A DNA stretch of 63,081 bases, counting the filler, from Phoronis australis (taxonomy: Eukaryota; Animalia; Phoronida): NCBI GenBank assembly GCA_002633005.1. It is 8 parts of 8 records of this genome, joined end to end, with 100 filler letters (N's around TTAATTAATTAA, not from the genome) between each part and the next. Parts side by side here need not be neighbours in the genome. Positions count along the whole stretch, not along the records: positions 1 to 30,301 come from NMRA01000229.1; 7 more parts are not named here. The stretch is one strand, 5' to 3'. The notes under the pieces are model-generated. The model saw only the letters and a program-made list of their open reading frames with translations. It did no database searches and had not been told where the DNA came from. The position numbers and the translations under genes were made by a program. This document shows, one piece after another, positions 1 through 56,955 of the stretch; the first letter of the stretch is position 1; each line of letters begins with the position of its first letter.

Positions 1-704
1 GAAGTGGATGGCTGACGATGATTTTACGAGTTCGACTACTCTGGCGCCTCCTAGTGGCAGTTTTGTTTTTTGCGTTCATCGCTGTGTCTCCTAAACCATA
101 TGCTGGATCTTTACTTAATTTAGTAAGTGTATTTATATGATGTTGACAACGGACGACGACGAGTTTCAGAGATCTAACTTTTGGTGTGCCCCCTAGTGGC
201 AATTTTAATTTTTTATGTTCACCCGTCTGTATCTTCAAAGGTCCTCAACAGATTTTCATAGAATATAGGCATCAATTGGTGAGATGACGCTTTCATCCTG
301 TTTTTCGATGGAATCGAGGTATTTTGCACCACTTGGTGGCCAATTTTGTTGTTTTCAAATCTTGTTTTTGGCGTCCACCCCTCGATCAACCAAGTCATTC
401 TGGGTATGGTTTTGCAAATTGGCCTATATGTTTTCAGTGTGAAGAGGACGTTTGATGAGAGCGACTGACTATTGTGGCGCCTCCTAGTGGTAGTTTTGTT
501 TTGTTCTTCGCCCATAACTGTATCTCCAAAACCCACTGCAGGATCATTAATTATTAAATTTAGTAAGTAAATTTATGTGAAGATAACAGACGATAACTGT
601 CAGGCGGATCAAACGGATGATGTGCTCACAATAGGCTACCCTCATTTTAAATATCACAATAATAAATAAATAAATACAAATTATAAAAACTTACAAAAAA
701 TCTA

Positions 705-2045
705 TCATGACACATTGATATTTTCATGTGTTAATGAGAATAGAATACATTTGTACTTAAATGTGTAAGAAAATTTGTTTAAAAATTGTGAGCTCCACAA
801 AACAATTGTTTGCAAAACGGTTCCGCATGCGGAACGGTTCCGCAACTGTCACATTGATCAACTAATTATTGTTAGTATTGTCACATTGATACTTTCAAGG
901 GACATTGATAATGGAATGCATTGTAAGTTGATTGGACAAAACAAATACCCCACAAAACCATTCTGTTTGGGAAACCGCTGCCCATGCAGAATGGTTCCAC
1001 ATGCGGAACGGTTCCTCAACTGCCACTTTTATTAATTAATTATTGTTTGGGTAGAAATTTTAATACTTTTGTTTAATGCGTGTTGCATGTTAAGATTTGA
1101 ATATTTCATCGCTTATGTTAAGGTATTACCAAAAGCGGTAAAATGGCATAGACAAAATGTCAATTTTTCCCGAGTCTGCTTGAGGTAGGTTTCTGCATCA
1201 CAAATTATTCAGAAAGTTCCCCACTGATTAATCATTGTTCATGATGACACATTGATATTTTCATGTGTTATTGAGAATAGAATATATTTCAACTTAAATG
1301 AGCAAGAAAATTTTTTTAAAAATTGTAAGCTCCAAAAAACTATAGTGTGCGGAACAGTTCCGCATGCAGAACGGTTCCGCGACTGTCATATTGATCAACT
1401 AATTATTATTAGGATTGTCACATTGATACTTTCAAGTGGTATTGTTTATGGAATGCATTTTAACTCTATTGGTCTTGAGAATTAAAAAATATGAGTGCTC
1501 CAAAAAACTATTCTGTTTGCGGAACCGTTCCGCATGTGGAGCCATTCTGCAAATGTCACATTGATTAATTATTGAGAGTGGGCACATTATACTTTCAAGT
1601 GTTATTGACAATGGAATGTACTTCATGTTTATTTGCCCAGGAGAAAATTATAAATTTTAGTCCTGTGTTAAACTTTTCTTTTTGTGGAACCCTTCTGCAA
1701 CTGTCACATTGATTTTTAAAAATAAATTATTATTTTGATTATTATTCCACAAAATATATATAATGTTTCTCTAGTCACAGTTTTCCACAAAACTTGCGCA
1801 GTATTCTGCAAGTGCATAATATTCCACAAAATGTGCGTAATATTCCACAAATTTTGCGGAATATTCCGCAGTCAGTGCGAAATATTCCGCATGGCAAAAT
1901 TGAACTTCTAATTAAGAAAGTGCTAATAGAGGAAATAAAAGTGTAACATTCTGAACATGTTTAGGGTAAGTTATAGATTTGTTTCATACCGTGTTTTATG
2001 GCCCTAAATAGATATAAAAAAGTGCGGAACCATTCCGCACACTTT
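705..2045. repeat. Diverged repeat with palindromic TTCCGCATGCGGAA / GGAACGGTTCC motifs, probably a DNA-transposon remnant
   Basis: Two related units start at ~707 and ~1244 (CATGACACATTGATATTTTCATGTGTTA). GGTTCCGCATGCGGAACGGTTCCGCA occurs at ~819, 992 and 1357, and TATTCCGCA variants at 1800-1890. Confidence 0.5.
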
Positions 2046-5001
2046 GAGACTAAATAAGATATGCTCATTTGAAAAAAATCGCCTTAAGTTTACTTTTTGA
2101 TGTTGAATTATTTGTGGAATTAATCAACAGCTCATAGAAAATATCCAAAATTTAGTCAGAATAAAATACCGTTCCCTTTTTAGTGCACCTGTGGCTGGTC
2201 GTTGATGCTGGTGCTTCTCAACATCAGGCATATTTGCAGATGTGTAGTGGCATTTTGCACATTTCAGTGAAGCACTCACTCACAAGCTCAAGCCTTTTAT
2301 CAATGTTCAGTGACAGTTTTCAAGTTTTACAGGACTGTTGATGAACATCTGCCAATAGCGCTAAAATTTTCCATGTTCACAATCAGATTCTCGTTTAGTC
2401 CTGTCACTTCAGAATGTCTCTTTTCAGTTGTTGGCCTGAGTTGATAATGTAGCTGTGTTCCACTGGCATTAGAGAGGTAAGAGACATTCTGCACCTCTGT
2501 GTTTGTCAAGCGATTAGTTTAGAAATCAGGCAGATTCATGAATGTTGGTATCTCTGGCTGTGGCTGCAGCTGCTGACTGTCTGCATTTTTTGCGCCCGTA
2601 TATTTATATGTGGACGCATTATGCCTTTATTTCTGTCTGTCGGTCCAGCGTTCGTCTGTCGTCCGCTGCCCTATCTCCAAATCCCTTTGATGTATGTTCA
2701 TAAAATTTTGCTCCTATGTTCCTTTCGGATGGTTCTGACCACCTGTGTGTAATTTTACGTTTACCTCTGTATCTTCAAAGGTTGTGTACAGATTTTTATA
2801 AAATTTGGCATATGGGCATCTACTAGTGAGGTGATGTTGTGGTCCCGTTTTTAGATAAATTTGAGGTTATTTGCGCTGTCTAGCAGGCCCGTAGGAAGGA
2901 AAAAATTATTGGGGGGGAGGGGCATAAACCAATTTGATATCGCCAACCTATCCCCTTGCAATCTTTACTGTTTTTGAGTCTGTTTTTTGGCATCCGCTAC
3001 TCAATCAATCAAACCAATCTAATGATGATTTTGAAAATTGGCATGTATGCTCATAGTGTGAAAAGAACGGTTGACAATGATTTTGACGACTAAAGGGTGG
3101 CTGACAATACGACTTGGCGATGACTTCAACTACTGTGGTGCCTCCCTAGTGACATTTTTTTGCGCTCATGGCTGTATCTCCTAAACCGATTGACGTATGT
3201 TCATGAAATTTTGCATATGTTCCTTTCGTAGATGGGAGGGCATGAGCAACTTTGGGAGGGATCTGACTACTGGTGTGCCCCCTAGTTTTTTACGTTTACC
3301 TTTGTACCTTCAAAGGTCCTCAACGTATTTTCATAAAATTTGGAATATAAGCATCTGTTGGTGAGATTACGCTATCCTCCCATTTTCAGATGGTATTTTC
3401 CACCATTTAGTGGCCATTTTTACTGTTTTCGATTCTGTTTTTGGTATCCACTCCTTTGTCAACCAAACCGCTTTAAAGATGATTGTGAAAATTGGCATGA
3501 ATATTCCTAATATGAAAGGGATGGCTTACGATGATTTTCTGATGCCAGTGTAAATGACTTGGAATTCCTAGAAAGTTTTACTTATTATGCTCTGTTTCAC
3601 TGTTGTGGTGTGTATTACTTTTCTTGTGCTGTCTTTCTTGTCTCTCTTCTAAATTTCGTTGATTTTACAAGAAGAATGTAGTTTTATTATGTGCCCACAT
3701 ATTTATATGTGGATGCATTATGTCGTCATCTCCGTCCGTCCGTCCGTCCGTCCGTCTGGTGTCCGGTGTCCGGCGTTCGCTGCTTTATCTCCAAAACCCT
3801 TTGACATACGTTCATGAAATTTGGCACATATGTTCCACTTATGAATGGGACGGCATGTGCGAACTTTCGAACGGATCAGACTACCAGTGTGCCCCCTAGT
3901 GGCAATTTTATTTTTTTACGCTTACCTTTGTATCTTCAAAAGTCCTGAACGGATTTTCATGAAATTTGGTATGTAGGCACCTATTAGTGAGATGACGCTA
4001 TCCTTCCGTTTTCAGATGGATTCGACATAGTTTGCGCCACCTAGTGGCATTTATTAGTGTTTTCGAGTCCACCCCTTTATCAACCAAACCGCTCAAAGGA
4101 TGATTGTGAAAATTGGCATGTATATGCTTACTATGTAGAGGACGGTTGACGATGATTTTCCGACGATTTCGACTACTGTGGTGCCTCCTATTGGCAGTTT
4201 TTTTTGCACCCATGGCTGTATCTCTTAAACCGTTTGCAGGATTTTTACTAAATTTAACAAGTAGGTATTTATATAATGTTGACAACAGACGATGATGACT
4301 TTCGCATGGATGGAACTGCCGGTGCACCTCCTAGTGGCAATTTTAGTTTTTTGTGTTTACCTCTGTATAAAGGTCCTCATTGTATTTTCATAAAATTGGA
4401 ATATAGGCATCTATTGGTCTGATGACGCTATCATCCCATTTTCAGATGGATTTAACGTAGTTTGCAACACCTAGTGACCATTTTTGCTGTTTTCAAGTCT
4501 GTTTTTTAGTGTAAACCTGTCTATCAAACAAACCGCTCTGAGGATGATTGTGAAAATTGGCATGTATTTTCTTACTATGAAGAGGACGGCAGATGATGAT
4601 TTTCCAACGATTTCGTCTACAGTGGTGCCTGCTAGTGGCAGTTTTTTTTACGCCCATGGCTGTATCTCTTAAACCGATTGCAGGATCTTTATTAAATTTA
4701 GCGAGTGTACTGATATGATGTTGACAATAGATGACGACGACTTTGGGATGGATCTGACTACCGTTGTGGCCTCTAATGGCAATTTCAATTTTTTACATTT
4801 ACCTGACTGTATCTTCAAAGGTTGTCAACGTATTGTCATAAAATTTGACATATAGGCATCTATTAGTCAGATAACGCTAACATCCCATTTTCGGATAGAT
4901 TTGATGTAGTTTGCATCACCTAGTGGCCATTTTTACTGTTTTCTTGTCTGAATTTTGGCATCCATTTCTCTATCAAACAAATGGCTCTAAGGATGATTGT
5001 G

Positions 5002-6303
5002 TGGGGGTCCCAGGGGGCTCGGGCCCCCCTTGGCTGCCGTAAGCAAAATGAAACGGGACGAGAGCGTGTCAAAGGTGTAAAAAGCCTGTAAAACTTGTAA
5101 AACATGACACACTTGGGTGTTAAACGTGTAAAATTTCACACGATTGTGTGTCAGTTGTTTAATAATGTGCCACGCTATCGTGTCAAACGAGTAAAATTTG
5201 CCACTGTAGCATGTCAAACGTGTAAAAAAATGAGACGATATTCCACTAGAAGACAGGAAGTACCAAAATTTAGTGCCTGCAATTCATAGCTCTGAATCTT
5301 ATAGTAAAAGATAGACATTCCCAAAAATTCCAGCCCCCATTCTTTTAGGCTTGGTGCGCTCATACAAAGTCTGAGCAAATCTCTATTGAAAACCAACAAC
5401 TTTGCACAGTTCGTCAGAAGTACCCAAGTTCTAAATAAATCTCGTTTGAGCCAGTGCTGTGGCCAAAGCTGTATAGGCCTACTAACATGCTGTATTTTGA
5501 CAATAGTCTTCACAGGTAGCTGGCACTGAGACTAGCTAAGGTCTGCCGTGGCAGTGTGACTCAGGACTAACCTGCCTGTAATTTCATGCAAGTGTATGAA
5601 TCTACCCTTGACTATATGCGGCATTTATGATTTGAACTTCGACAAGACAGCTTGCAACCGCATGCATTTACCGTTTGCCAGTGTCTGGTCTCGATCCGCA
5701 CCAGGTCCGATAGGCTGCAGTCCCGAGTCTGACAAAATGATTTCTGTCAAAATTTCTTCGCCACATGTCTTCAGCAAATTCGATAAAATTGTTTGCATTT
5801 TGATTTCATTAAAATTAAGGCGCGCTGTTTATTATTTTATCCCCGTTTGCGGGCACTGATCCGGTCGCCCTGACAGCGTTTTCTCGGCCTGGGTTCCTGA
5901 ATGAATTGTACTTCCGGGTTCGCAGCAAGTTCAAAATGGCGGTGGTTTTTCGGGTGCGAATCGTGAGTGGCACGTTCATTTAAACTTTTTTCGAGTACGG
6001 AATGTGTATTAGTTATGGGGTAGGTACTTCTTGGATCCTTATTACATCCTCTAACCATGTAATAAGAGTTAGCAATGACACAGATTACAGGCTAGCGTGG
6101 CAAAAGCGCCACGCTTGACACGCTAGTGTGGTAAAAGTGCCACACTAAACATGTCAAACGTGGAGTATTGGAACGAAAATTACACGTTTTGGCCACGTTT
6201 GACACGCTATATTTTACATGTTTGATGCTACATTTTACACGTTTCACACGCCACGCTTTACATGTTTGACACGCTGTTTTAATACTCCACGTTTTCACCT
6301 GGG
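5002..6303. mobile_element. Non-autonomous DNA element with inverted subterminal repeat arrays (EnSpm/CMC-like end CACCTGGG)
   Basis: It interrupts the HINE repeat. TGTCAAACGTGTAAA-type repeats at 5065-5227 are mirrored by TTTACA(C/T)GTTTGACAC at 6180-6275. The left end is a GGGCCCCCCTTGGCTGCCG piece that also occurs at ~53288. Confidence 0.45.
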
Positions 6304-7869
6304 CACCTTCATGAAATTGGCTGTTGGTGTGCCCCTGGTGGCAATTTTAGTTTTACGTTTACTTCTGTATCTTCAAAGGTCCTCTTAACGGAGTTTCATA
6401 AAATTTTGAGTTCGGGCATCTGTATCTCCTAAACCCATTGCAGAATCTTTATTAAATTTAATTTGTAGGTGTATTTATATGAAGCTAACAACAGACAATG
6501 ACGACTTTCAGGCAGATCCAGTGAACACTATGCCCCCTAGTGGCAATTTCATTTTATTCTGTTTTTGTTTGTTTCTCTGTAGTTCCTTGATGGATTTCTA
6601 TGAAATTTGGTGTAAAAGCTTTCTATTTAAGGAGCAATGACATATCTCGTTTTCGGATGGATTGTATGTTTTTGCGCATTCTAGTGGCCATTTTTATGAC
6701 ACAAACAACCCTAAATGCACACCATTTGTGATGCATTTCAACGCTTGGCGTTTCTTTTGTAGTATTTTACTCTTACCTCTGTATCTTTGGAGGTCGTCAA
6801 CGGATTTTCATTAAATTTAGCAGTTGGGCATCTATTAGTGGATGATTCCATCCCCTCGTTTTTGGATTGATTCAAGGTTCTTTGCGCCACCTAGTGGCCA
6901 CGTTTACTGTTTTTTGAGTTTGTTTTTTAGTGTCGACCCTTCTATCAACCAAACCACTCTGGGTATGATTTTGAAAATTGGCATGTATGTTCTTACTGTA
7001 AAGAGGGCGGCTGACAAGAATTTTTCGACTACTGTGGCACCTCCTAATTGCAGTTTTGTTTTTTTTGCACCATAGCTGCATCTCCTAAACCGTTAACAGG
7101 ATCTTTTATTAAATGTAGCAAGTATATTTATATGATGTTGACATAGAACGACGACGACTTTCGCATCGATCGGTGTACAGTTGCGCCCCCTAGTGTCAAT
7201 TATAGTTTTTTACGTTCACCGTTGTATCTTCAAAGGTTCTCAACCGATTTTCATAAAACTTGGCATGTATTATTGAGATGATGCTTTCCTCCTGTTTTCG
7301 GATGGGTTCGAGGTATTTTACACCACCTAGTTGCCATTCGTATGCACCAACATATTTATATGTGGTTGCATATTGCCGTCATCTCTGTCTGGGCGTCCGA
7401 CATCCGGCGTCCGCAGCTGTATCTCATAAACCTCTGGCAGGATCTTGATGAGAGTTGGAAGATGTGTTCCTATGATTAGCTGACGACTGATGACGACAAA
7501 TTTCGGACCTCTCCGACTACGGGTATGTCCCCTAGTGGCAATTTTAGTTTTTTATGCTCACCTCTGTATCTTCGGAGGTCCTCAACGTATTTTCACAAAA
7601 TTTAGTAAACAGGCATCTATTATTATTATTATATTTATTTATTATAGTGACATAAGGGTGCCAGTAAATACAATATCAAAGACAGAATATTCACCACACC
7701 CCTCAGCCTCAATGGGCTTACTCAGTCACCTAATGATAATTAAATCATTACATAACATTGCACGAGCTCAAATATGACCACTTCAGACTACTTCATAAAC
7801 AAACAATTACTTCTAACCTGCAAAGCGTCTTGAATGAATTTCGCTAGACCTTTCAAGTTATTTTGGAAT

Positions 7870-10061
7870 ATTTGAGGTAGGGCAGAATCCCGTATAAAAC
7901 ATGGTCGAATGTGATTATATTTTTCACAATCAAAAATGAAATGAACTTAATCTTCAATTCCATTTTTACAAACACGACAAATTCGCTCATTCACAGGAAT
8001 TCCAAAGTACCGCCCCACCTCAACCTCTAGTGGTAGAATACCTGCTCTCAATCGAGCTATGACGAACCTCTGAGACACCGGCAGACGTAAATAGTCTTCT
8101 ACACAATAGTCATTCTTAACAGATCTATATAAGTACAGTTTTGGTTTCTCAGTGATTATTTTTAACCAGTTTAACTCTTCTAACTGGAACCTGAACTTGA
8201 CCAATTACAGGAGTTCCGATGTTTAAGGTCCCATAAAAAGACTTTTTTTGCAATTCTGCTTTCATCCATTAGAACTAAACGATTCCAGAGCCTTAGCATA
8301 GTTTCATGTTGTTTGTAATGTGAATTTGGCCAACCGGAGTCGCCATAAAGTACTGCATTGGCAGCATACTTGTGGACCCCTGGAAATATACGTAGTGCTC
8401 TCGTTCTGATCATTTTGCATTTGGAGTATTGCGAATATCCCCAAATTCCAGATCCATATTCTAGAATTGAAGCGACGGACATTTCAAAACATTTACTGTA
8501 ACTGTTGAAACCCATGTTACCAATGTGTTTGTACTTGCTCACCAGAGCTCCCAATGCTCTGGAGACGGAGTCTGCCAATACCTCAGCTGTCAAATTGAAA
8601 TCCATAAACTCATTCAGAGTTACACCCAGATACTTATAGCATTCTCTTAAATTCACAATGCGATCGCACAAAATGAATTCAAAACTCGTTCTTACATGTC
8701 CCCTCTTGCGAAAATGAACCACATCAGTCTTGGAAAAATTTACAGACATTTGCCACATTGCACACCAATTACTCAATACGTTCAGTAAATCCTGTAAATA
8801 GGTTTCATTACCCGAAAAAATCACAATGTCATCTGCGTACAACAGACATGATAAATTACATACATCAAAAATTGATACCCTTGCTACATCTGTTCAAATC
8901 ATTAATCAAATTATTTATGAAAAATGAAGACAATGTAGGCGACAATGGATCCCCCTACCTGACCCCTCTTTGTACTGGAAACCAGTGGTGTAACTTGAGT
9001 GACCTAATTGTACACAGGCTTCTGTCTGCGCATACAACGATTTTACTGAGTGATAGAATTTTCCAACCACTTCTAAATCAATTAATTTTTTCAATGAAAA
9101 GTTTCTATCTAAATTGTCAAAAACCCATTCCATATCGACGAATATTGCAAACGTTGGTCTATTACAAGCTATCCTATTTCTAACACTTGACGCGAGTGTA
9201 AACACGTGGTCAAGACAAGACCTCCCCTGTCGAAAACCATTTTGTTCTTCATTCAGTTTGTGTTCGACATTCAGAAACTCGGTTAATCTCCCGTTTAGTA
9301 CATTACAATACACTTTGCTCACGGTGGAGAGCAGACTTGTCCCTCTATAGTTGGAAGGTAAATTCAAATCTCTATCTGATCCTTTCGGTATAGGGGTGAT
9401 AATCGCTTAATACCATAATGATGGAATAAATCAGTGTCAAAGACCTTCTGAAAGAGCGAGACCAAAATATTAACCATCCCTGGAGATCTCAGTACTTCGT
9501 ATGAGATACCGTCTATACCAGTGGCCTTACCCGATTTTAATTTACGAATAACAGAATAAACTCCAAAAAAAGAAAAACTTTTCCAGTACTTCTTTAACAC
9601 GACCCGAACATTCAGCATATTGCATTGCTTTCTCCAAATCCTCTACGTTTGACTTTCAGCCATTGGAATTTTCGCAAACAAATCTCTAAAACTGGCCTCC
9701 CATCTTTCTGAGGGAATAAAATTTTCATGTCTCTTCTTGAGCTGAGGTCCTAAGTTCTTGAGTTCTTCCAAAAAACATTGGGGTCATTTTCACATGATTC
9801 TTCAACCAGTGTTAATGTATTTTTCAAATACTGCCTTTTTAAAAACCTGAATCTCTTGTCAAAGTAATATCTAGAATTCTTATATTCATACAGTCGCTCC
9901 CTTCGTCGTTTAGTATTTTTTTCTTTGAGAAATACTTTTTCTTTTTGGGCCACGTTTTTCCAAAGTTGCCTTAATTCATCATTCCAAAAGGGCTTGTTTG
10001 CCTTCAATTTTTTCCTCAGATTTTTGTTACAACTTTGAGTACATCTTAAATGCAATTCCAT
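7870..10061 (-). pseudogene. LINE ORF2 reverse transcriptase and C-terminal Cys-His domain, frameshifted
   Basis: KPFWN, KATGIDGI, NYRGTSLLS, EEQNGFRQGRSC, YADD, YKYLGV and RICRVC...ED motifs are spread over several ORFs separated by frameshifts or stops. Confidence 0.9.
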
Positions 10062-10138
10062 TTCTGTTTTTATAATTTCTCAGAGGGAGTTATAAATCTC
10101 ATCAACTTCATATTGTCTTCGACACTCATTTTCTAATA

Positions 10139-10840
10139 TTAAAAGCAACTCTGCAATCGAACTTTTAAAAATCTCATAAAATTTAGTTTAAATCGTTTCC
10201 TATATCGCATATCAAAGGAGTTATTCGTACCTTGATCCTCTACAGATTCGTCACTGATATTCACTGGAACGACACTGTGATCAGGAAGTTTTGACTTTTC
10301 TGACAGTAGTCCCTGTAAATGATGTTCGTCAACTACCTCTGTACAAGCGTTGACCTCAAATTTAAGACAAGACTGGAGCGACTCATGGGGGACAATAATG
10401 TAATCTACAACCGCTCTTCCTCTATGACTTATTGAGGTGAAGTTATCTTTACCTATCTCTTTCCTACCATTCACTATGCAAGTTTTAGAGCCAAACAAAA
10501 AGTCAATCAAACTTCTACCATGACTATTTACAGCTTTATCTGTTACGACTCGTTTATTTACTTGACAATCAACATCTGGAATGTAATCATTCAAGTTACC
10601 CACTCTGGAGTTAAAATCTCCAAATATAACAATGTCATCTGCTATATCTGCATGTAAATATAGCTTGCATAATAGATGGCTATAGAAACTATCCAGACCA
10701 CAACCCCTTGAAGAGTTCTCAGGTGGTAAATAGCAACAAAATACAATTATACAATAGTCTGAGCGTATATGAGTTAGTCTTAAAGCTAATATACCATCAC
10801 ACGAGTTATCAACAATATCAATTTTAAATGTTTTAAACAA
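10139..10840 (-). pseudogene. LINE ORF2 apurinic endonuclease domain fragment
   Basis: Motifs CYLPPE, IFGDFNSRVG, NSHGRSL, VVDYIIV and PDHSVV. Confidence 0.88.
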
Positions 10841-16556: not shown

Positions 16557-19500
16557 TATATCTCCTAAATCATTTGCAGGATCTCTACTAAATTTAGCGA
16601 GTATATTCATATGATGTCGACAACAGACGACCACGACTTCGATAGATCTGTCAGTGTTCCCCCTAGTGACAATTTTAATTTTTTATATTTACCTCTGTGT
16701 CATCAAAGGTTCTGAACAGATTTTCATAAAATTGGAATGTAGGCATCTATTAGTGAGATGACGCTATCATCCTGTTTTTGGATGGAATCGAGGTATTTTG
16801 AGCCTCTTAGTGGTCATTTTGCTGTTTTGAGTCCACCCTCTATCTAAGGATGAATTTGAAAATTGACGTATATGCTCTTACTATGAAGAAGACTTTTCAT
16901 GATGATTTTTCAACGACTTCTGTTGTACCCCCTGGTGGCAGGTTCGTTTTTTTACGCTCATGGCTATATCTCCTAAACCACTTGCAGGATTTTCACTAAA
17001 TTTAGCAAGTGCATTGTTATGAAGTTGACAACATACGACAGCTTTTGGACGGATCTGACCCTAGTGACCCTAGTATCAACTTTAGTTTTTTACATTCATT
17101 ATCTTCAAAAGCCCTCAACGGATTTTCATAACATTTGAAATATAGGCCTCCATCGGTGAGATGATGCTGTCTTCTTATTTTCGGATGGATGAGATATATT
17201 GCCCCACCTAGTGGCCATTTTTGCTCTCTGTCTCTCTATCAACCAAATTATTCTAATTGATTTTGACATTTGGGTTGTTAGTGTCAATAGAACGGTTGAC
17301 GATGACAACTTTGACTACTAAGGCGCCTCCTATTGTCAATCGTAGTTTTTTACGTTTACCTTTGTATCTTCATCGGTGCTCAACCGATTTTCATAAAACT
17401 TGGCAGATAGGCATGTCTTATTGAGATGATGCTATCCTCCCCTTTTAGGATGGGTTCAAGGCATTTTGCACCACCTAATGGCCATTTTTATGCGCCCACA
17501 TATTTATATGTGGTTGCATATTGTCGTCATCTCTGTCTGGGCGTCGGGTGTCCGCTGCTGTACCTCCTAAACCTGTGGCAGGATCTTGATGAGATTTGGA
17601 AGATGTGATCTTATTAAACTGGCGACAGACAACGACAAATTTTGTACCTCTCAAACTATGGTTGTGTCCCGTTGTGGCAATTTTTATGCGCCCACATATT
17701 TATATGTGGATGCATTATGCCATCATGTCTGTCCGTCCAGCGTCCGCTGCTCTATCTCCAAAACGCGTCGCTGTATGTTCATGAAATTTTGCACATGTGT
17801 TCCTTACATAATTGGGGCAACATGAGCGAACTTTCGGACGGATCCGACTACGGGTGTGCCCCCAAGTGTCAATTTTAATTTTTTACGTTTACCTCTGTTT
17901 ACCTCAAAAGTCCTGAAGGGATGTTTGTAAAGTTCGGTATATAGGCACCTATTAGTGAGATGACGCTGTCCTGCCGTTTTCGGATGGATTCAGCATAGTT
18001 TGCGCCACCTAGAGGCCATTTTAATGTGCCCACATATTGATATGTGGACGCATTATCCGTCATCTCCGTCTGGCCAGCCGGCAATCCGTCCGGCCGTTTG
18101 TCCGGCGTCCACTGCTCTATCTCTAAAAAGCCTTGACGTATCTTCATGAAATTTGGCACGTGTGTTCTGTTCATAAATGGGACGGCATGAGTATACTTTT
18201 GGATGGATCTGACTACCGGTGTGCCCCCTAGTGGCAATTTTTGTTTTTTACGTTCACCTCTGTATCTTCAAAACTCCTGATCGGATTTTCATAAAATTTG
18301 GTATATAGGCACCTATTAGTGAGGTGATGCTGTCCTACCATTTTTGGATTTAATGTAGTTTGTGCCACCTAGTGGCCATTTTTACTACTTTATTGTCTGT
18401 TTTTTGCACCTACCCATCTATCAACCAAACCACTCAAAGGATGACTTTGAAAATTGGCACGTATGTTCTAACTATGAAATGGATTGCTGAGAATGATTTT
18501 CCGACTATATTGACTACTGTGGCGCCTCCTAGTGGTGGTTTTGTTTTTTTTACCGCCTATGGCTGTATCTTTAAAACCATTCAAAGGATTTTTACTAAAT
18601 TTAGCAAGTGTATTTACATGATGTTGACAACGGATGGCAAGGACTTTCAAACAGATCTAACTTTTGGTGTGCCTCCTGGTGACAATTTCATCTTTTTATG
18701 TTTACCTCTGTATGTTCAAAGTTCCTCAACGTATTTTCATAAAATTTGGCATACAGGCATCTGCTAATGAGGCGACGCTATCTCTCTGTTTTCAGATGAA
18801 TTCGACCTAGTTTGTGCCACTTAGTGGCCACTTTTATTGTTTTCAAGTATGTTTTTTGGCGTTTACTCGTCTATCAACCAAACCGCTTTCAGGATAATTG
18901 TGAAAATTAGCATGTATGTTTCTACTATGAAGTGGATGGCTGACGATGATTTTACGAGTTCGACTACTCTGGCACCCCCTAGTGGCAGTTTTTTTTTTTG
19001 CGCTCATCGCTGTGTCTCCTAAACCATATGCAGGATCTTGACTTAATTTAGTAAGTGTATTCATATGATGTTGACAACGGACGACGACGAGTTTCAAAGA
19101 GATCTAACTTTTCGAGTGCCCCCTAGTGGAAATTTTAGTTTTTATGTTCACCTGTCTGTATCTTCAAAGGTCCTCAACAGATTTTCATAGAATTTTGAAT
19201 ATAGGCATCTGTTGGTGAGATGATGCTATCATCCTGTTTTTGGATGGAATCGAGGTATTTTGCACCACCTGGTGGCCAGTTTTGCTGTTTTCATATCTTG
19301 TTTTTGGTGTCCACCCCTCGATCAACCAAATCATTCTGTGTATGGTTTTGCAAATTGGCCTATATATTTTCAGTGTCAAGAGGGCGTTTGATGATGGCAA
19401 CTGACTACTGTAGCGCCGCCTAGTGGTAGTTTTGTTTCATTTTTCGCCCATAACTGTATCTCCAAAACCCACTGCAGGATCATTATTAAATTTAGTAAGT

Positions 19501-22500
19501 GAATTTATGTGAAGATAACAGACGATAACTGTCAGGCAGATCAAACGGACGCTTTGCTCACAATAGGCAATTTCATTTTGTTCTGTTTTCCTTCGTTTCT
19601 CTGAAGTTCCTTGACAGATTTTATGAAATATGGCATGATCCCGTTTTTGGATGGAGTGTACGTTTTTGTGCCATCTAGTGGCCATTTTTATGATACAAAT
19701 AAATAAGCCTAAAAGCACACCCTTTGCGATGCATTCATGGGTGCTATTGTAGTTTTTTACGCTCACCTCTGTATGTTCAGAGGTCCTCAACGTATTTTCA
19801 CAAAATTTGGTATATGGGCATCTATTTGTGAGACAACGATAGCCTTTCATTCGTTTTCGGATGGATTCAACGTAGTTTGCGCCACCTAGTGGCCATTTTT
19901 ACTGTTTTCGAGTCTGTATTTTAGCGTCTACCCCTCCATCAACCAAACCGCTCTAAGTATGAAAATTGGCATGAATGTTCTTACTATGAAGAGGACACTT
20001 GACGATGATTTTCCGATGACTTTGATTCCTGTGGTGCATCCTATTGACAGTTTTTTTGCGCCTATGGCTATATCTACTAAACTGTTTACAGGATAAATGT
20101 CCGACGCATTATGCGTCATCTCCGTCTGGCGTCCACTGCTCTATATTCAAAACGCCTTGACGTATGTTCATGAAATTTTGCACATGTTTCCCTTTCATGG
20201 ATGGGATGGCTTGAGAGAACTTTCGGACGGATCTGACTACGGGTGTGCCCCCTAGTGGAAGTTTAGTCTTCTACGTTTACCTCTGTATCTTCAAAAGTAC
20301 TGAACAGATTTTATTAAAATTTGGTATATAGGCACCTATTAGTGATCTGACGCTGTCCTGCCGTTTTCGGATGGACTCCTTGTAGCTTGCGCCACCTAGT
20401 AGCCATTTTTATGCGCCCACATATTGATAAAAGGATGCATTATGCCGTCATCTCCGTTCGTTCCGGCCTTCCGTTCGGCCATCCGTCCGTCAGGCATCTG
20501 CTGCTCTTTCTCTAAAACGCCTTGACATATCTTCATGAAATTTTGTACATGTGTTCCTACCGTAAATGGGACGGCATGAGCGAACTTTCGAACGGATCCG
20601 ACTACTGATGTATCCCTTCAAAAGTGGCAATTTTATTTTTTTTACGTTTACCTCTGTATCTTCAAAAGTCCTGATCGGATTTTCATAAAATTTGGAATAT
20701 TGGCACCTATTAGTGAGCTGACACTCTCTTCCCATTTTCAGATGGATTCGACATAGTTTGCACCACCTATTAGCCATTTTTCCTGTTTCGGAGTCTGTTT
20801 TTTGCATCCTCCTCTATCAACCAAACCACTCGAAGGATGATTGTGAAAATTGGCACGTATATTCTGACTGTAAAGTGGACGGCTGACAATGATTTTCCGA
20901 CTATTTTGACTACTGTGGCGCCTATGGCTGTATCTTCTAAACCGTTCAGAAGATCTTTACTAAATTTAGTAAGTGTATTTACATGGTGTGGACAACGGAT
21001 GGCAATCACTTTCAAACAGATCTAACTTTTGGTGTGCCACCTAGTGGTAATTTCATCTTTTTACGTTTACCTCTGTATGTTTAAAGGTCCTCAACATATT
21101 TTCATGAAATTTGGCATACAGGCATCTGCTGATGAGGTGACTCTCTGTTTTCAGACGGATTGGACCTAGTTTGCGCTCCCTAATGGCCACTTTTGTTGTT
21201 TTCAAGTATGTTTTTCGGCATTTACTCGTCTATCAACCAAACCTCTTTCAGGATAATTGTGAAAAGTGGCATGCATGTTTCTACTATGAAGTGGATGGCT
21301 GACGATTATTTTACGAGTTCGACTACTGTGGCGCCTCCTAGTGGCAGTTTTGTTTTTTGCGCTCATCGCTATATCTCCTAAACTGTATGCAGGATCTTGA
21401 CTTAATTGAGCAAGTGTATTTATATGATGCTGGCAACAGACGACGACGACTTTCAAACAGATCTAACTTTTGGTGTGCCCCCTAGTGGCAATTTAATTTT
21501 TTTACGTTTAACTCATTATCTTCAAAGGTCCTCAACAGATTTTCATAAAATTTTGAATATAGGCATCTATTGGTTGACGCTATCATCCTGGTTTTGGATG
21601 GAATCGAAGTATTTTGCGCCACCTGGTGACCATTTTTGCTGTTTTCAAATCTTGTTTTTGTCATCCACCCCTCGATCAACCAAATCATTCTGGGGATGGT
21701 TTTGAAAATTTGCCTACATGTTTTCAGTGATGATGGCGACCGACTCCTGTGGCACCTCCTAGTGGTAGTTTTGTTTTGTTTTTCGCTCATAACTGTATCT
21801 CCAAAACCCACTGTAGGATCATTATTAAATTTAGTAAGTGAATTTATGTGAAGATAACAGACGATGACTGTCAGGCAGATCAAACGGATGCTGTGCCCAC
21901 AAGTGGCAATTTCATTTTGTTCTGTTTTCCTTCGTTTCTCTGAAGTTCCTTGACTGATTTTACAAAATATGGCATGATCCCGTTTTCGGATGGAATGTAC
22001 GTTTTTGTGATACAAATAAATAACCCTAAAAGCACACCATTTGCGATGCATTCGTTTGCGGCGCATTTCAACGCTCTGCGTTGCTCTTATATTTCTTACG
22101 CTCACCTCTATCTTCGTAGGTCCTCAACATATTTTCACAAAAGTTGGTATACCCGCATCTATTAGTGAGACGACGATAGCCTCTCGTTTTCGGGTGTATT
22201 CAACATAGTTTGCGCCACCTAGTGGCCATTTTTACTGTTTTCAATTCTGTTTCTTTGTGTCTATCCCTCCATCAATCAAACTGGTCTAAGCATGAAAATT
22301 GGCATGTATGTTCTTACTATGAATAGGACAATTGATAATGATTTTCCGACGACTTTGGTTCCTGTGGCGCCTCATATTGGCAGTTTTGTTTTTTTTGCGC
22401 CTATGGCTATATCTCCTAAACCGTTTGCAGGATAAATGTGGGCGTATTAAGCCGTCATCTCCCTCCGTCCGTCTGGCCGGCGTCCACTGCTCTATCTCCA

Positions 22501-22619
22501 AAACCCCTTGCTGTGTTCATGAAATTTTGCACATGTGCCCCTTTCATGGATTGGACGGCATGAGCGAACTTTCAGATGGATATGACTAAGGGTGTGTCCC
22601 CTAGTGGCAATTTTAGTTT

Positions 22620-23683
22620 TTATGCGCCCACATATTTATATGTGGACGCATTATGCCATCATCTCTGTCCGTCCGGGCGGCGTCCGGCGTCCGCTGCGCT
22701 ATCTCCAAAACCCTTTGACATACATTCATGAAATTTGAAACATATATTCCATTCATGAACGGGACGGCATGTGCGAACTTTCAGACGGATCCGACTACCG
22801 GTGTGGCCCCTAGTGGCAATTTTAGTTTTTTACGCTTACCTTTGTATCTTAAAAAGTCCTGAACGGATTTTCATGAAATTTGGTATGTAGGCACGTATTA
22901 GTGAGATGACGCTATCTTGCCGTTTTCAAATGGATTCGACATAGTTTGCGTCACCTAGTGGCCATTTTTAGTGTTTTCGAGTCTGTTTTTGTTTGACCAT
23001 CCCTCTATCAACCAAACCGCTCAAAGGATGATTGTGAAAATTGGCATGTATATGCTTACTATTTAGAGGACGGTTGACGATGATTTTCCGACGATTTCGA
23101 CTACTGTGGCGCCTCCTAGTGGCAGTTTTTTTTTGCGCCTATGGCTGTATCTCCTAAACCGTTCGCAGGATCTTTACTAAATTTAGCAAGTGTATTTATG
23201 TGATGTTGACAACGGACGATGACGACTTTAGGATGATTCTGAGGACTGGTATGCCTCTAGTGGCAATTTTAGTATTTGCCTCTAGTGGCAATTTTAGTAT
23301 TTTACATTGACCTCTGTATTTTCATAGGTCTTCAGGTGTATACTTTGTGTTACTTCGTGACTATGAAGGAAAAGTTCCAAGTAGAAATTTGTTTCTGGCA
23401 TTCTATTGCTGTGCTAATCTCGTATGTTGGTAAATTTGTTTTTAAATCTATGTTTCTGTGGTGCTTTAAGCAACTGGTGTATAGGATGTGCTTGTATCAT
23501 GAAGATTACTCACATTTTGCCCCTAGCCTATTGAGGAGACAATGACCATGCCTTTCCATTTTGCAAAGTACAACATACTACATATATGCCCTCTACTGGC
23601 CACTTCATGGTACCAATAAACAACCCTAGAAGGATACCGTATGCGGTGTAATTGTGGGCGCATTTCAACGCTCTGCGTTGCTC
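22620..23683 (+). mobile_element. Second complete HINE copy, one 450-bp unit shorter
   Basis: Same head at 22620 and same tail (TGTGGGCGCAT 23653-23663, hairpin 23666-23680). Shares the non-repeat segment ~23320-23650 with 27422-27735. Confidence 0.7.
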
Positions 23684-26264
23684 TATCTCCAAAACGCCTT
23701 GCCGTGTTCATGAAATTTTGCACATGTGCCCCTTTCATTGATTGGACGGCATGAGCGAACTTTCAGATGGATACGACTAAGGGTGTGCCCCCTAGTAGCA
23801 ATTTTAGTTTTTTACGTTTAACTCTATCTTCAAAAGTCGTGAACGGATTTTTGTAAAATTGTGTACATGGGCACCTATTAGTGAGATGACGCTACCCTGC
23901 CATTTTCGGGTGGATTCAGCTTAGTTTGTGCCACCTAGTGGCCATTTTTCCCGTTTTGGAGTTTGTTTTTACATCCACCCCTCTATCAACCAAACCACTC
24001 GAAGGATGATTGTGAAAATTGGCACATCTGTTCTGACTATGAAGTGGACGGCTTACAACGATTTTCTGACTATTTTGACTACTGTGGCACCTCCTAATGG
24101 CGTTTTTTTTATGTTTACCTCAAAGGTTCTCAACGTATTTTTATAAAATTTGGCATACAGGCATTTGTTAATGAGGCGTCGCTATCTCTCTGTTTTGAGA
24201 TGGTTTCGACCTAGTTTGTGCTACGTAGTGGCCACTTTTACTGTTTTAGAGTATGTTTTTTGGCGTTCACTCGTCTATCAACCAAACCGCTTGCAGGATA
24301 ATTGTGAAAATTGGCATTTGTGTTACTACTATGAGGTGGATGACTGACGATGATTTTCCGACGAGTTCAACTAATGTGGTGCCTCCTATTGGCAGTTTTA
24401 TTTTGCGCTCATGGCTATATCTCCTTAAGCATTTGCAGGATAAATGTGGACGCATTATGCGGTCATCTCCGTCCGTCTGTCTGTCCGTCCGACGTCCGGC
24501 ATTAGCTGCTCTAAAACGCCTTGACATATCTTCACTCTGTGTCTTCAAAGCTTCTTCTTAAGAGATTTATAAAATTTGGAATATCGATGATAGCGTCCCG
24601 TTTTTGGATGGAATCAAGGTATTTTGTGCCACTTAGTGTCCATTTTGCTGTTTTTGAGTTCACCTTCTATCAACCAAAGTATTCTTAGGATGATTTTGAA
24701 AATTGGCGTATATGCTCTTACTATGAAGAGGACGGTTCATGATGATTTTTCAATGACTAACTTCTGTTGTGCCCTCTAGTGGCAATTACGTTTTGTTTGT
24801 GGTCATGCCTACCGGTATATCTCCTGAGTCATTTGCAGGATCTCTACTAAATTTAGCGAGTATATTCATATGATGTTGACAACACGACTTCGATAGATCT
24901 GTCTATTGGTGTGCCCCCTACTGGCAATTTTAATTTTTTATATTTACCTCTGTGTCATCAAAGTTTTGAACAGATTTTCATAAAATTTGGAATATAAGCA
25001 TCTATTAGTGAGATGACCCTATCATCCCGTTTTCGGATGGAATCGAGGTATTTTGCGCCACCTTAGTGGTCATTGACGTATATACTGTTTTAGGCTTTTC
25101 ATGATGATTTTTCAACGACTTGGACTTCTGTTGTACCCCCTGGTGGCAGGTTCGTTTTTTACACTCATGGTTATATCTCCTAATCCACTTGCAGGATCTT
25201 CACTAAATTTAGCAAGTGCATTGTTATTAAGTTGACAACATACGACTGTTACAACTTTTGGACGATCTGACTACTGGTGTGACCCTAGTATCAACTTTAG
25301 TTTTTTACATTCATTATATTCAAAGGCCCTCAAGCGATTTTCATAACATTTGAAATATAGGCCTCCATCGGTGAGATGATGCTGTCTTCTTATTTTCGGA
25401 TGGATGAGATATGTTGCCCCACCTAGTGGCCATTTTTGCTCTCTGCCTCTCTATCAACCAAACTATTCTAATTGATTTTGAAAATTGGATTTAGGTTGTT
25501 AGTGTCAATAGGACGGTTGACGATGACAACTTTGACTACTATTGTCAAACAGTTTTTTTTCAAAGGTGCTCAACCGATTTTCATAAAACTTCATTGATAG
25601 GCATGTATTATTGAGATGATGCTATCCTCCCGTTTTAGGATGGGTTCGAGGTATTTTGCATCACCTAGTGGTCATTTTTATGCACCCACACATTTATATG
25701 TGGTTGCATATTGTCGTCATCTCTGTCCGGGCGTCCTGTGCCCGCAGCTGTACCTCCTAAACCTCTGGCACAATCTTGAAGAGATTTGGCAGATGTGTTC
25801 CTATTAAGCTGACGACAGATAACGACAAGTTTTGTACATCTCAGACTACGGGTGTGTCCACTTGTGGCAATTTTAATGCGCCCACATATTTATATACAGG
25901 CATCTGCAAATGAGGCGACGCTATCTTCGACCTAGCTTGTGTCACCTAGTGGCCACTTTACTGTTTTCAAGTATGTTTTTTGGCGTGTACTCGTCTTTCA
26001 ACCAAACCACTTTCAGGATAATTGTAAAAATTGGCATGTATGTTTCTTCTATGAAGTGGATGGCTGACGATGACTTTACGAGTTTGACTACTCTGGCGCC
26101 TCCTAGTGGCAGTTTTGTTTTTTGCGCTCATCGCTGTGTCTCCTAAACCATATGCTGGATCTTTACTTAATTTAGTAAGGCTGTATTTATATGATGTTGA
26201 CAACGGACGACGACGAGTTTCAAAGAGATCTAACTTTTGGTGTGCCCCCTAGTGGCAATTTTAA

Positions 26265-27774
26265 TTATGCGCCCACATATTTATATGTGGACGCATTATG
26301 CTGTCATCTCTGTCCGTCCGTCCGTCCGTCCGGCGGCGTCCGCTGCTCTATCTCCAAAACCCTTTGACATACGTTCATGAAATTTGGCACATATGTTTCA
26401 TTCATGAATGGGACAGCATGTGCGAACTTTCGGACGGATCCGACTACCGGTGTGCCCCCTAGTGGCAATTTTAGTTTTTTACGCTTACCTTTGTATCTTC
26501 AAAAGTCCTGAACGGATTTTCATGAAATTTGGTATATAGGCACCTATTAGTGAGATGACGCTATCCTTCCATTTTCAGATGGATTCAACATAGTTTGCGC
26601 CACCTAGTGGCCATTTTTAGTGTTTTCGAGTCTGTTTTTGTGCGTCCACCCCTCTATCAACCAAACAGCTCAAAGGATGATTGTGAAAATTGGCATGTAT
26701 ATGCTTACTGTGTAGAGGACGGTTGACGATGATTTTCCGACGATTTCGACTACTGTGGCGCCTCCTAGTGGCAGTTTTGTTTTTTTGCGCCTATGGCTGT
26801 ATCTCCTAAACCGTTCGCAGGATCTTTACAAATTGTGTAAGTATATTTATATGATGTTAACAACGGAAGATGACGACTTTTGGTCGGATCCGACTACCGG
26901 TGTGCCCCCTAGTGGCAATTTTAGTTTTTTACGCTTACCTTTGTATCTTCAAAAGTATTGAACGGATTTTCATGAAATTTGGTATGTAGGCACCTATTAG
27001 TGAGATGACGCTATCCTACCGTTTTCAGATGGATTCGACGTAGTTTGCGCCACCTAGTGGCCATTTTTACTGTTTTCGAGTCTGTATTTTTGCGTCCACC
27101 CCTCTATCAACCAAACCGCTCAAAGGATGATTGTGAAAATTGGCGTGTATGTGCTTACTATAAGGAAGACAGCTGACAATGATTTTCAGACGATTTGGAC
27201 TACTGTGGCGCCTCCTAGTGGCAGTTTTGTTTTTTTGCGCCCATGGCTGTATCTCCCAAACCGTTTGCAGGATCTTTACTAAATTTAGCAAGTGTATTTA
27301 TGTGATGTTGACAACGGACGATGACGACTTTAGGATGATTCTGATTACCGGTATGCCTCTAGTGGCAATTTTAGTATTTGCCTCTAGTGGCAATTTTAGT
27401 ATTTTACATTGACCTCTGTATTTTCATAGGTCTTCAGGTGTATACTTTGTGTTACTTCGTGACTGTGAAGGAAAAGTTCCAAGTAGAAATTTGTTTCTGG
27501 CATTCTAATGCTGTGCTAATCTCGTATGTTGGTAAATTTGTTTTTAATTCTATGTTTCTGTGGTGCTTTAAGCAACTGGTGTATAGGATGTGCTTGTATT
27601 ATGAAGATTACTCACATTTTGCCCCTAGCCTATTGAGGAGACAATGACCATGCCTTTCCATTTTGCAAAGTATGCCCTCTACTGGCCACTTTATGGTACC
27701 AATAAACAACCCTAGAAGGATACCGTATGCGGTGCAATTGTGGGCGCATTTCAATGCTCTGCGTTGCTCTTGTT
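26265..27774 (+). mobile_element. Single complete, low-divergence HINE copy (~1.5 kb)
   Basis: Head subTIR at 26265-26277, inverted repeat at 26286-26296, then (GTCC)n. The internal repeats have an exact 450-bp period. 3' subTIR at 27739-27749, hairpin at 27752-27766, end CTCTTGTT. The host repeat sequence (CTGTTTTCCTTCG) resumes afterwards. Confidence 0.75.
26451..27370 (-). promoter_or_regulatory. Representative run of CTCF-like motifs (a similar motif recurs about every 150 bp through the whole 1-27.8 kb repeat)
   Basis: Minus-strand 19-mers TTGCCACTAGGGGGCACAC, TGGCCACTAGGTGGCGCAA and CTGCCACTAGGAGGCGCCA versus the CTCF core consensus TGGCCACCAGGGGGCGCTA. The central CTAG lies at 26459, 26604, 26765, 26909, 27054, 27215 and 27359. 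Binding is not demonstrated. Confidence 0.65.
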
Positions 27775-27789
27775 CTGTTTTCCTTCGTT

Positions 27790-30301
27790 TCTTGGCAGAT
27801 TTTAGTTTAGGGCCACCTGTTGTCTATTTTTGGACCTAAGAAAAGCTCTAGAAACACGCTGTATGCGTTGCTGTCGTGGGTGCAGTTCAACGCTAGACCA
27901 TGCTTTTGTTACTGAATTGTGGCAAAGCTCTGCGCCACCTGTTGTCTGTTTTTGGAACTAAATAAGAGCTCTAGAAACAAGCTATATGCGTTGCTGTTGT
28001 GGGTGCATTTCAACGCCGTGCCTTGCTCTTGTTCCTAAATTGTGGCAAATTTCTGAGCCACCTATTGTCTGTTTTTGGAACTAATCAACAGCTCAAAAAG
28101 CATGCTCCATGCAACTTTGTTGTGGATGCATTTCAGTGCTCTGCCTTGCTTTTGTTACTGAATTGTGGCAAATGTCTGCGCCACCTATTGTCTATTTTTG
28201 GAACTAAAGAAGAGCTCAAGAAGCATGCTTTATGCATTGCTGTTGTGGTAGCATTTTAACACTACGACTTGCTTTTGTAACTGAATTTTGGCAAATTTTA
28301 GCGCCATCTGTTGTCTATTTTTGGAACTAAAAAAGAGCTCTTACAAATTTCAGTGCCACCTATTGTCTACTTTCAGAACTAAACAGCTCAAGAAGCATGC
28401 TTTATGCATTGCTGTTGTGGTAGCATTTTAACCCTGCGACTTGCTTTTGTAACTGAATTGTGGCAAATTTTAGCGCCACCTGTTGTCTATTTGTGGAACT
28501 AAAGAACAGATATAGCAAATTTTAGCGCCACCTATTGTGTACTTTCGGAACTAATCAACAGCTCAAGAAGCATTCCTTATGCGTTGCTATCATGGGTGTA
28601 TTTCAACACTACGCCTTACTTTTGTTACTGAATTGTGGCAAATTTTAGTGCCACCTGTTGTCTATTTTTGGAACTAAAAAAGAGCTCTAACAAATTTCAG
28701 TGCCACCTATTGTCTACTTTCGGAACTAAACAGCTCAAGAAGCATGCTGTATGCGTTGCTGTCGTGGGTGCATTTCAACACTACGCCTTGCTTTTGTTAC
28801 TGAATTGTGGCAATGTTTAGCGCCACCTGTTGTCTATTTTTAGAACTAAAGAACAGCTAAAGCAAATTTTAGCGCCACCTATTGTCTATTTTTGGAACTA
28901 AAGAAACTGGCTGTATGCGTTGATGTCGTGAATGCATTTCAACGCGTTGGTTTTGTTACAGATTTCTGGCAAATTCCAGCGCCACCTATTGTCTACTTTT
29001 GGAACTAAAGAAGAGCTCTAGCAAATTTCAGCGCCACCTATTGTGTACTTTTGGAACTAATCAACAGCTCAAGAAGCATGCTGTATGCGTTGCTATCGTG
29101 AGTATATTTTAACACTACGCCTTGCTTTTGTTACTGAATTTTGGCAAATTTTAGCACCACCTGTTGTCTATATTTGGAACTAAAGAAGAGCTCTAGCAAA
29201 TTTCAACGCCACCTATTGTCTACTTTCGGAACTAATCAACAGTTCAAGAAGCATGCTGTATGCGTTGCTATCGTGAGAGTTTTTAAACACTACGCCTTGC
29301 TTTTGTTACTGAATTTTGGCAAATTTTAGCGCCACCTGTTGTCTATTTTTGGAACTAAAAAAGAGCTCTAACAAATTTCAGTGCCACCTATTGTCTACTT
29401 TCAGAACTAAACAGCTCAAGAAGCATGCTTTATGCATTGCTGTTGTGATAGCATTTTAACCCTGCGACTTGCTTTTGTATCTGAATTGTGGCAAATTTTA
29501 GCGCCACCTGTTGTCTATTTGTGGAACTAAAGAACAGATATAGCAAATTTTAGCGCCACCTGTTGTCTATTTTTGGAACTAAAGAAGAGCTCTAGCAAAT
29601 TTCAGCGCCACCTATTGTGTACTTTCGGAACTAATCAACAGCTCAAGAAGCATTCCTTATGCGTTGCTATCATGGGTGTATTTCAACGCTACGCCTTACT
29701 TTTGTTACTGAATTGTGGCAAATTTTAGTGCCACCTGTTGTCTATTTTTGGAACTAAAAAAGAGCTCTAACAAATTTCAGCACCACCTATTGTCTACTTT
29801 CGGAACTAAACAGCTCAAGAAGCATGCTGTATGCGTTGCTGTCGTGGGTGCATTTCAACACTACGCCTTGCTTTTGTTACTGAATTGTGGCAATGTTTAG
29901 CGCCACCTGATGTATATTTTTGGAACTAAAGAACAGCTATAGCAAATTTTAGCGCCACCTATTGTCTATTTTTGGAACTAAAGAAACTGGCTGTATGCGT
30001 TGATGTCGTGAATGCGTTTCAACGCGTTGGTTTTGTTACAGATTTCTGGCAAATTCCAGCGCCACCTATTGTCTACTTTTGGAACTAAAGAAGAGCTCTA
30101 GCAAATTTCAGCGCCACCTATTGTGTACTTTTGGAACTAATCAACAGCTCAAGAAGCATGCTGTATGCGTTGCTATCGTGAGTATATTTTAACACTACGC
30201 CTTGCTTTTGTTACTGAATTTTGGCAAATTTTAGCGCCACCTGTTGTCTATTTTTGGAACTAAAGAAGAGCTCTAGCAAATTTCAACGCCACCTATTGTC
30301 T
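27790..30301 (+). repeat. Satellite of stacked HINE 3' ends (~123-bp monomer, ~52-bp sub-repeat, ~1080-bp higher-order unit)
   Basis: The monomer contains GTGGGTGCATTTCAAC...CTTGCTTTTGTT and GCGCCACCT(G/A)TTGTC. The variant GCTCAAGAAGCATTCCTTATG recurs at 28561 and 29641. The array runs into the contig end. Confidence 0.85.
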
Positions 30302-56820: not shown

Positions 56821-56843
56821 GGTAACCCCTCCTTTTATGATAT

Positions 56844-56921: not shown

Positions 56922-56955
56922 AAGAAGAAATAGTAAAAAGTTAAGGAGGAATACA

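Follow-up and report, generated by a model that had tools for sequence, protein, structure and literature searches.

Transposons of mammals carry binding sites for CTCF and Helitrons of nematodes carry sites for host factors, and whether the element or its host is the beneficiary is usually unsettled. Non-autonomous Helentrons (HINEs), among them DINE-1 and Cg_HINE, are described as non-coding elements with subterminal inverted repeats (subTIRs) of 11-15 bp close to either end, a 5' inverted repeat, a GTCC microsatellite, central repeats of 140-180 bp, a 3' stem-loop and a T-rich target (PMC4067079, PMC7492417). The element that concerns us is a 1.5-kb HINE with the same anatomy, copies of which are piled up in positions 1-30301 of the window (the whole stretch of DNA analysed, 63,081 nucleotides), and whose internal repeats carry a CTCF-like motif. 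The window consists of scaffolds concatenated via N linkers, with a scaffold end at 30301; its first piece, 1-30301, holds the entire finding, and scaffold ends flank that piece on both sides, so that neighbouring genes cannot be placed.

We read this stretch as a self-nested pile of a high-copy HINE, in which the motif is probably a real CTCF site kept among replicating copies, and which as a pile probably has no selected insulator role. Judging from the sequence, we give this reading a probability of roughly 0.55.

The CTCF-like motif and the copies that keep it

The original prediction, which described a unidirectional array of about 100 CTCF motifs on the minus strand, is borne out in both number and strand. 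Scanned with the CTCF matrix MA0139.1 (a vertebrate matrix, and possibly unlike that of this host), positions 1-30301 contain 100 minus-strand and no plus-strand matches at p<=1e-5, 126 and 5 at 1e-4, and 62 and 0 at 1e-6; thirty dinucleotide shuffles, a comparison that the prediction had proposed, give means of 0.43 minus and 0.2 plus at p<=1e-5. The published consensus CCASYAGRKGGCRS (PMC6746451) occurs exactly 24 times on the minus strand and never on the plus strand, or 59 times and never with one mismatch, compared with no exact occurrence and one with a mismatch in the other 32.7 kb of the window. The exact pattern written out in the prediction was likewise always on the minus strand, but there are only 30 occurrences of it. 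Elsewhere in the window, the matrix has three minus and four plus matches at p<=1e-5. These seven are isolated (32859-32877, 39627, 42894-42912, 43789-43807, 44492, 44562 and 48004) where ~0.7 would be expected, and two pairs of them lie within duplicated repeats.

Two further claims, that nearly every subunit has a motif and that the array extends over ~30 kb, had to be scaled back. Among 100 aligned slots of the A, B and C monomers, 68 pass 1e-5 and 84 pass 1e-4, which is most rather than nearly all; 20,517 of the 30,301 bases (68%) are derived from the HINE family, six gaps in coverage add up to 9,544 bases, and no run of motifs without a break spans more than part of the stretch (Table 1). 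Seventy-five of the 100 matches are in 1-27800, and the other 25 belong to a separate array of HINE 3' ends in 27801-30301, where the motif is weaker and degraded at two positions. Position 8 of the motif in this array switches between both tolerated letters (15 T, 13 C).

The monomers A, B and C (144, 145 and 161 bp) are 51-67% alike, and so as strongly diverged as had been proposed, and a single motif closes each of them. Compared between types, no window of 14 columns is better kept than the motif end (0.86 invariant vs 0.39 overall), and to this extent it is the best-preserved part of the subunit, as claimed; within types the claim fails by raw identity, the core windows ranking only 63-126 of 450, although a conservation profile matched for base composition has motif mismatches at an observed/expected ratio (O/E) of 0.56-0.63. 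All nine high-information positions are kept in A, B and C despite a divergence of 33-49%. Six motif types differ by 15 distinct changes, which cost -1.4 bits each vs -3.8 for random changes (p 2e-4); for those at motif positions 4-16 the mean is -1.9 vs -5.0 (p 7e-4). Core changes are mostly to tolerated letters (positions 7, 11, 12 and 16), the exceptions being the A that type C has at position 12 and both changes of the 3'-end array type. Seventy-four intact sites score 17.9 bits, where a simulation of neutral decay gives 11.6 (p 2e-4). Indirectly, this supports a CTCF-type recognition code, which the variation between types appears to follow. Of the 32 top genome-wide variants inside the element, among the best 40 of 378 rows, none falls in a motif window (3.2 expected, p 0.03).

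CTCF-like cores also turned up in metagenome contigs. An exact 24-mer of the element found no locus in these contigs and a two-motif pattern found 17, none of which aligns to HINE; these loci (among them L003 and L017) were picked by motif pattern and are thus a selected set rather than a random control. Bacterial intergenic 43-bp tandem hairpin repeats with the motif core are present in L003 (1768-2344), L008 (473-813) and L017 (1986-2546), and co-oriented cores occur in tandem repeats of 146 bp (L007, L009, L010), 55 bp (L016, 1261-1597) and 139-159 bp (L015, 646-962) on unrelated contigs. The 146-bp repeats of the three GC-rich contigs (L007 1999-2444, L009 and L010) reach 20-24 bits, and a high score by itself is no proof of CTCF. 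Support for the predicted CTCF identity of the core is indirect and comes from how the types vary.

Which copies keep the motif was addressed by parsimony on monomer trees of 28, 35 and 26 copies, with rows of <75% of columns dropped. Motif changes are depleted on internal branches (O/E 0.52-0.58, p 2e-4 to 0.011) and occur on terminal branches at O/E 0.90-0.97, which is not significant. The contrast holds for trees built with or without the motif columns and by Fisher test (p 0.012; p 0.028 for non-CpG C/G alone). Singleton alleles have an O/E of 0.87-0.99 and shared alleles one of 0.66-0.74; CpG columns mismatch at 0.31, vs 0.19-0.21 at other C/G. Depletion on internal branches together with neutral tips implies that the constraint is likely on propagating copies rather than on the resident array, and selection among source copies is likely the simplest reading of the contrast. 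Such constraint on the branches that produce copies would point to the element as beneficiary.

Carrier element, insertion targets and one-way orientation

The prediction's assignment of the carrier to the HINEs stands. Positions 26265-27774 are a complete HINE by the subTIR pair, 5' hairpin, (GTCC)n, central monomers, 3' stem-loop and dispersal, and this anatomy agrees with both published definitions (PMC4067079, PMC7492417). The 6-bp stem is present in all four HINE tails that were folded (z -1.4 to -5.8). Among open reading frames of >=90 aa, only one 90-aa stop-to-stop frame lies wholly within the element, which leaves it no coding capacity; the longest frames of the scaffold are those of a LINE. 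No minus-strand family piece was found in 1-30301.

Four public sequencing runs were compared with the element (X1, X6, X8 and X10; X1 at 80% likeness). In X1, 29,754 contigs match HINE, of which 274 leave it at 26265 and 349 at 27774; beyond these ends the flanks are diverse and T-rich (flank agreement about 0.4), and five contigs join a HINE tail to a head. The family is thus dispersed, present in many copies and constant in its ends.

Within the pile, nine of 11 full heads lie 2-11 nt past a motif (five after B, four after A and none after C). Five of seven tails resume at monomer +1..+4; of the other two, one resumes within a D-type monomer, as judged by eye, and the second joins at an internal microhomology. 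These counts leave out the truncated heads at 22436, 24444 and ~20097. In the 450-bp consensus the sole occurrences of CA(A/T)TTT border on motifs A and B. Non-self 5' flanks end in CATTT in X1, X10 and X6 and in CAATTT in X8, and the joint of B motif to head is present in all four runs. Tails restart where heads interrupt (C+4/5, B+1..5), and T-runs at these places would mask short target-site duplications. With six to eight independent events, the clustering of junctions has p 0.09-0.04 vs TTTT runs and 0.016-0.004 vs TTT, junctions being partly non-independent owing to duplicated blocks. A short polar preference for CA(A/T)TTT, which lies at the A/B motif edge, would explain why HINE nests in itself and, together with the head-to-tail order of the monomers, why the motifs are co-oriented. 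One-way motif orientation accordingly requires no selection; repeat geometry and target choice suffice.

Some joints in the pile have a different form. In the truncated heads (that at ~20097 seen by eye) the hairpin has no 5' arm; they come after one and the same position of the monomer, and this joint recurs in an X1 contig. A related HINE supplied the 3' ends that make up the array at 27780-30301, whose unit-to-unit joints also recur in X1 contigs; repeated by-pass of the end, or re-use of the terminus, would be expected to give such a tandem.

Probable selection on the element and competing explanations

We hypothesize that an ancestral monomer with a CTCF site was amplified head-to-tail and then into an A-B-C unit, and that a RepHel acting in trans would place the element at CA(A/T)TTT targets, always in one polarity; the motif's own edge would offer such a target, and hence the nest would grow co-oriented. 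Copies with an intact site would more often be parents of new copies, the simplest benefit being that bound CTCF might keep copies open or unmethylated in a CpG-decaying genome, and copies once inserted would decay neutrally. That the element uses CTCF for its own benefit, one of two suggestions in the original prediction, fits constraint confined to internal branches; the escape from silencing which it proposed would enter at the step of keeping copies open. More tentative, and in our view short of an even chance, is the fuller version in which HINE would be selected on its own replication to recruit CTCF at each internal repeat, with the motif edge as landing site and one polarity in transcripts.

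Several points weigh against our reading. Occupancy of the motifs by CTCF is predicted from their letters, and the step from CTCF binding to more transposition is conjectural. The core is shared with bacterial tandem repeats (L003, L017), and so the core alone proves no CTCF, and within types other boxes match or exceed the conservation of the motif. The 145-bp monomer trees (26-35 copies) contain duplicated blocks, which makes their p-values optimistic. Among 126 offsets the motif window comes first for internal branches and 38th for terminal ones, but these offsets overlap and represent ~7 independent windows. For pairs of nearest neighbours the O/E is borderline, at 0.81-0.87 (p about 0.05), and weak constraint on resident copies is therefore possible. 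Heads (11 full) and tails (seven) do not pair as clean parenthesis nests; clean nesting is rejected on this count, and recombination and block duplication must therefore also have shaped the pile, which contains duplicate blocks 0.3-0.9 kb long and 85-93% identical. Finally, the host is likely a marine lophotrochozoan, as judged from a single short ORMDL exon on another scaffold (58 aa, 37882-38055, Pfam), whose closest named relatives are those of Lingula (71%), Watersipora (69%) and Lineus (67%), vertebrates being at about 57-66%. This takes the scaffolds to have one source, and one other scaffold is bacterial.

Constraint on replicating lineages is also what a transposition signal would show, and the motif could thus be a hairpin or CTAG signal for the element's HUH RepHel (or for another binder of element or host), its likeness to CTCF a coincidence of quasi-palindromes. 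We consider this unlikely. Type B does form a perfect 5-bp stem around TAG, but the stem is broken without compensation in five of six motif types (pairs 6-12, 7-11 or 4-14), with CTCF-allowed letters mostly kept, and the folding of the motif region does not stand out from that of shuffled sequence (z -0.3 to -0.9), where the terminal hairpins have z -4 to -6. Junctions cluster beside the motif, as the CA(A/T)TTT target already explains. The same core is found in bacterial 43-bp repeats, at one locus (L003) ~1.2 kb from a Y1 (IS200/RAYT-like) HUH transposase gene; these repeats, however, are without the CTCF tail, mostly score 14-15 bits (maximum 19.6) and come from loci chosen by motif pattern. 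Neutral carry-along, which we find quite unlikely, would have the founding monomer catch a host CTCF site, with conservation arising from few source lineages, gene conversion and alignment edges. The monomer types share one ancestor unit (51-74% alike), making the ~100 sites a single origin, and independent lineages are few, given duplicated blocks at the identity stated above. Many alignments stop just beyond the motif, but an edge bias would cut terminal-branch counts too, and these are not lowered; the diverged types keep their nine high-information positions and vary mostly at tolerated letters (p <= 7e-4), and the absence of in-element variants from motif windows likewise speaks against carry-along.

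The other suggestion of the original prediction, that the host keeps the pile as a co-oriented super-anchor or insulator block in the manner of DXZ4/ICCE or the immunoglobulin heavy chain (IgH) VH sites, fares worst and seems to us very unlikely. On terminal branches the motif is lost from resident copies at a rate that fits neutrality, which is not the purifying selection on resident sites that such a role implies; decay has taken 32 of the 100 slots below the 1e-5 threshold, the pile accommodates five foreign insertions, and its orientation arises mechanically. Set against this are the sheer number of co-oriented matches (100, with 62 at p<=1e-6), the overall conservation of the motif with its borderline nearest-neighbour depletion, and functional co-oriented CTCF arrays in mammals (PMC6746451, PMC6125249). 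A squid is reported to have topologically associating domains that resemble products of loop extrusion, with no motif directionality (PMC10658182), and a study of amphioxus also argues for some loop extrusion (10.1101/2022.01.04.475009). CTCF is reported from molluscs, annelids and rotifers but not from flatworms (PMC10658182), and in one annelid the CTCF motifs are mostly single, located at promoters and without directional arrangement (PMC7854359). At CTCF sites of protostomes, echinoderms and lancelets, loop and insulation scores are reported to be at baseline (preprint 10.64898/2026.10.19.760054), and with a lophotrochozoan-like host a loop-anchor role for CTCF is therefore unsupported.

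If the fuller version holds, thousands of oriented CTCF sites would have been spread through the genes of an invertebrate by this element, and a selfish element would illustrate a non-looping, anti-silencing use of CTCF. What CTCF does in spiralians is a gap (PMC10658182). The sites of this high-copy family, intact and decayed ones by the thousand, would serve as a test set for protostome CTCF in opening, methylation protection and transcription, where loops are apparently not anchored by it. Failing CTCF binding, the pile would be an ordinary HINE nest.

Make-up of the stretch, host context and known systems

The HINE nest is broken by five foreign insertions (Table 1). The two non-coding copies bounded by terminal inverted repeats (TIRs) are 80-97% alike, segment by segment. 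An Rfam scan of 1-30301 gave zero matches, and an origin from an RNA gene or SINE was rejected.

Table 1. Features of positions 1-30301 of the window
Feature	Position	Strand	Remark
Nest of HINE copies and fragments, all in + orientation	1..30301	+	68% of scaffold piece
Complete 1.5-kb HINE copy, serving as reference	26265..27774	+	ends set by 274 + 349 loose-ended X1 contigs
5' subTIR (26267-26277) and internal inverted repeat (26285-26296), together a hairpin	26267..26296	+	z -4.3
(GTCC)n microsatellite	26312..26331	+	sequence
Central repeats: head monomer, then A/B/C monomers in 450-bp higher-order unit	26345..27379	+	
3' subTIR, perfect 11-bp inverse of 5' subTIR	27739..27749	+	
3' stem-loop, 6-bp stem	27752..27766	+	intact at copies 22069 (z -4.5) and 23666 (z -5.8)
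HINE 3' ends of ~123/172 bp in tandem, each with subTIR and remnant of the stem-loop; 52-bp sub-duplications	27780..30301	+	
Nested HINE heads at 17490, 17686, 18024, 20411, 22622, 25680, 25876	17488..25890	+	
Further HINE heads at 2590, 3689, 7342, 26267			
CTCF-like motif, type A	26450..26468	-	23.2 bits
CTCF-like motif, type B	26595..26613	-	25.4 bits
CTCF-like motif, type C	26756..26774	-	23.0 bits
CTCF-like motif, type T, 3' unique arm	27670..27688	-	18.7 bits
Longest unbroken co-oriented motif run	16654..30250	-	74 matches
Non-HINE repeat-rich stretch, 17-bp palindromic repeats, unclassified	598..2587	.	
Foreign insertion, inverted subterminal repeats, unclassified	5002..6324	.	
Broken LINE retrotransposon (APE and RT pieces) inside nest	7623..10906	-	
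Foreign TIR-bounded non-coding element	11057..12389	.	inverted relative at 15082-16551
Second copy of foreign TIR-bounded element, opposite orientation	15082..16551	.	

In the RNA run X10 (18% read), 30,800 of 12.75 million reads fall on the element at 26265-27774, and first mates are on the minus strand at ~32:1 over its length (18-59:1 per bin; one run, of uncalibrated direction). Reads leave the element into diverse flanks, 935 at the 5' end and 1,653 at the 3' end, and must therefore be mostly read-through transcripts from many loci. The bias suggests a near-uniform polarity of copies within host transcripts; with a library of the usual kind, copies in transcripts would be almost solely in + sense, with their CTCF motifs facing against transcription. 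Capture of A-rich strands is a possible cause of the bias. An asymmetry of polyadenylation signals as its cause is unsupported in the element (AATAAA 1 plus/0 minus; ATTAAA 0/1). Runs X6 and X8, labelled organisms B and C, contain near-identical pieces of the 3' arm (27203-27728; 1-2 substitutions per 150-540 bases), which may come from close relatives, mixed samples or horizontal transfer. Public runs that contain the sequence are those labelled organisms A, B and C and those of two marine metagenomes.

On other scaffolds of the window there are host exons of a CCCH zinc-finger gene (53519-53917, +) and of the ORMDL gene (36850-38055, -), and a stretch at 60905-61130 (+), without a Pfam match, that we take to be the last exon of an STT3-like gene. 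An atlas search with the CCCH exon pointed to no usable taxon (first match 0.89). A Tn3-family transposase (1000 aa) with a resolvase, at 56251-59925 on a separate low-GC scaffold, is bacterial contamination or symbiont DNA.

The open literature yielded no HINE with CTCF-coded monomers, with Repbase, Dfam and most subscription papers outside the search, and the text-bearing supplements of PMC4067079 have zero occurrences of five sought terms. In the oyster HINE array table CTCF-core 7-mers are few: six of them occur 11-54 times each in the 3.37 million characters searched, in which each cell counts to 400 letters at most. Oyster HINE monomers likewise have short boxes conserved between families; unlike known HINEs, the element described here has an A-B-C higher-order unit in which each monomer closes in a CTCF-type motif. 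It resembles Caenorhabditis Helitrons with heat-shock elements (PMC6927752) in being a rolling-circle element with tandem host-factor sites, up to >100 per copy in that case. There the factor is HSF-1, with binding and gene rewiring established by chromatin immunoprecipitation and RNA-seq; here the sites are CTCF-like and known as sequence, and, unlike in the Caenorhabditis case, the constraint is placed on lineages that replicate. With DXZ4/ICCE/FIRRE and the IgH VH sites (PMC6125249, PMC6746451) the element shares CTCF motifs that are dense, face one way and outlast neighbouring sequence, but those are single host loci conserved among mammals, with binding and looping shown, whereas this is a dispersed mobile family of an invertebrate with resident sites decaying neutrally. 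The PATC insulators of C. elegans derive from Helitron minisatellites (bioRxiv 10.64898/2026.08.08.743475), and they similarly tie Helitron repeats to insulation and escape from silencing; PATCs act via DNA mechanics with no protein motif, in contrast to the protein-binding type of motif found here. HINE repeats of ~150 bp, Helitrons with host-factor sites and co-oriented CTCF arrays are thus each known, and their combination, in an element that likely exploits CTCF, is apparently new.

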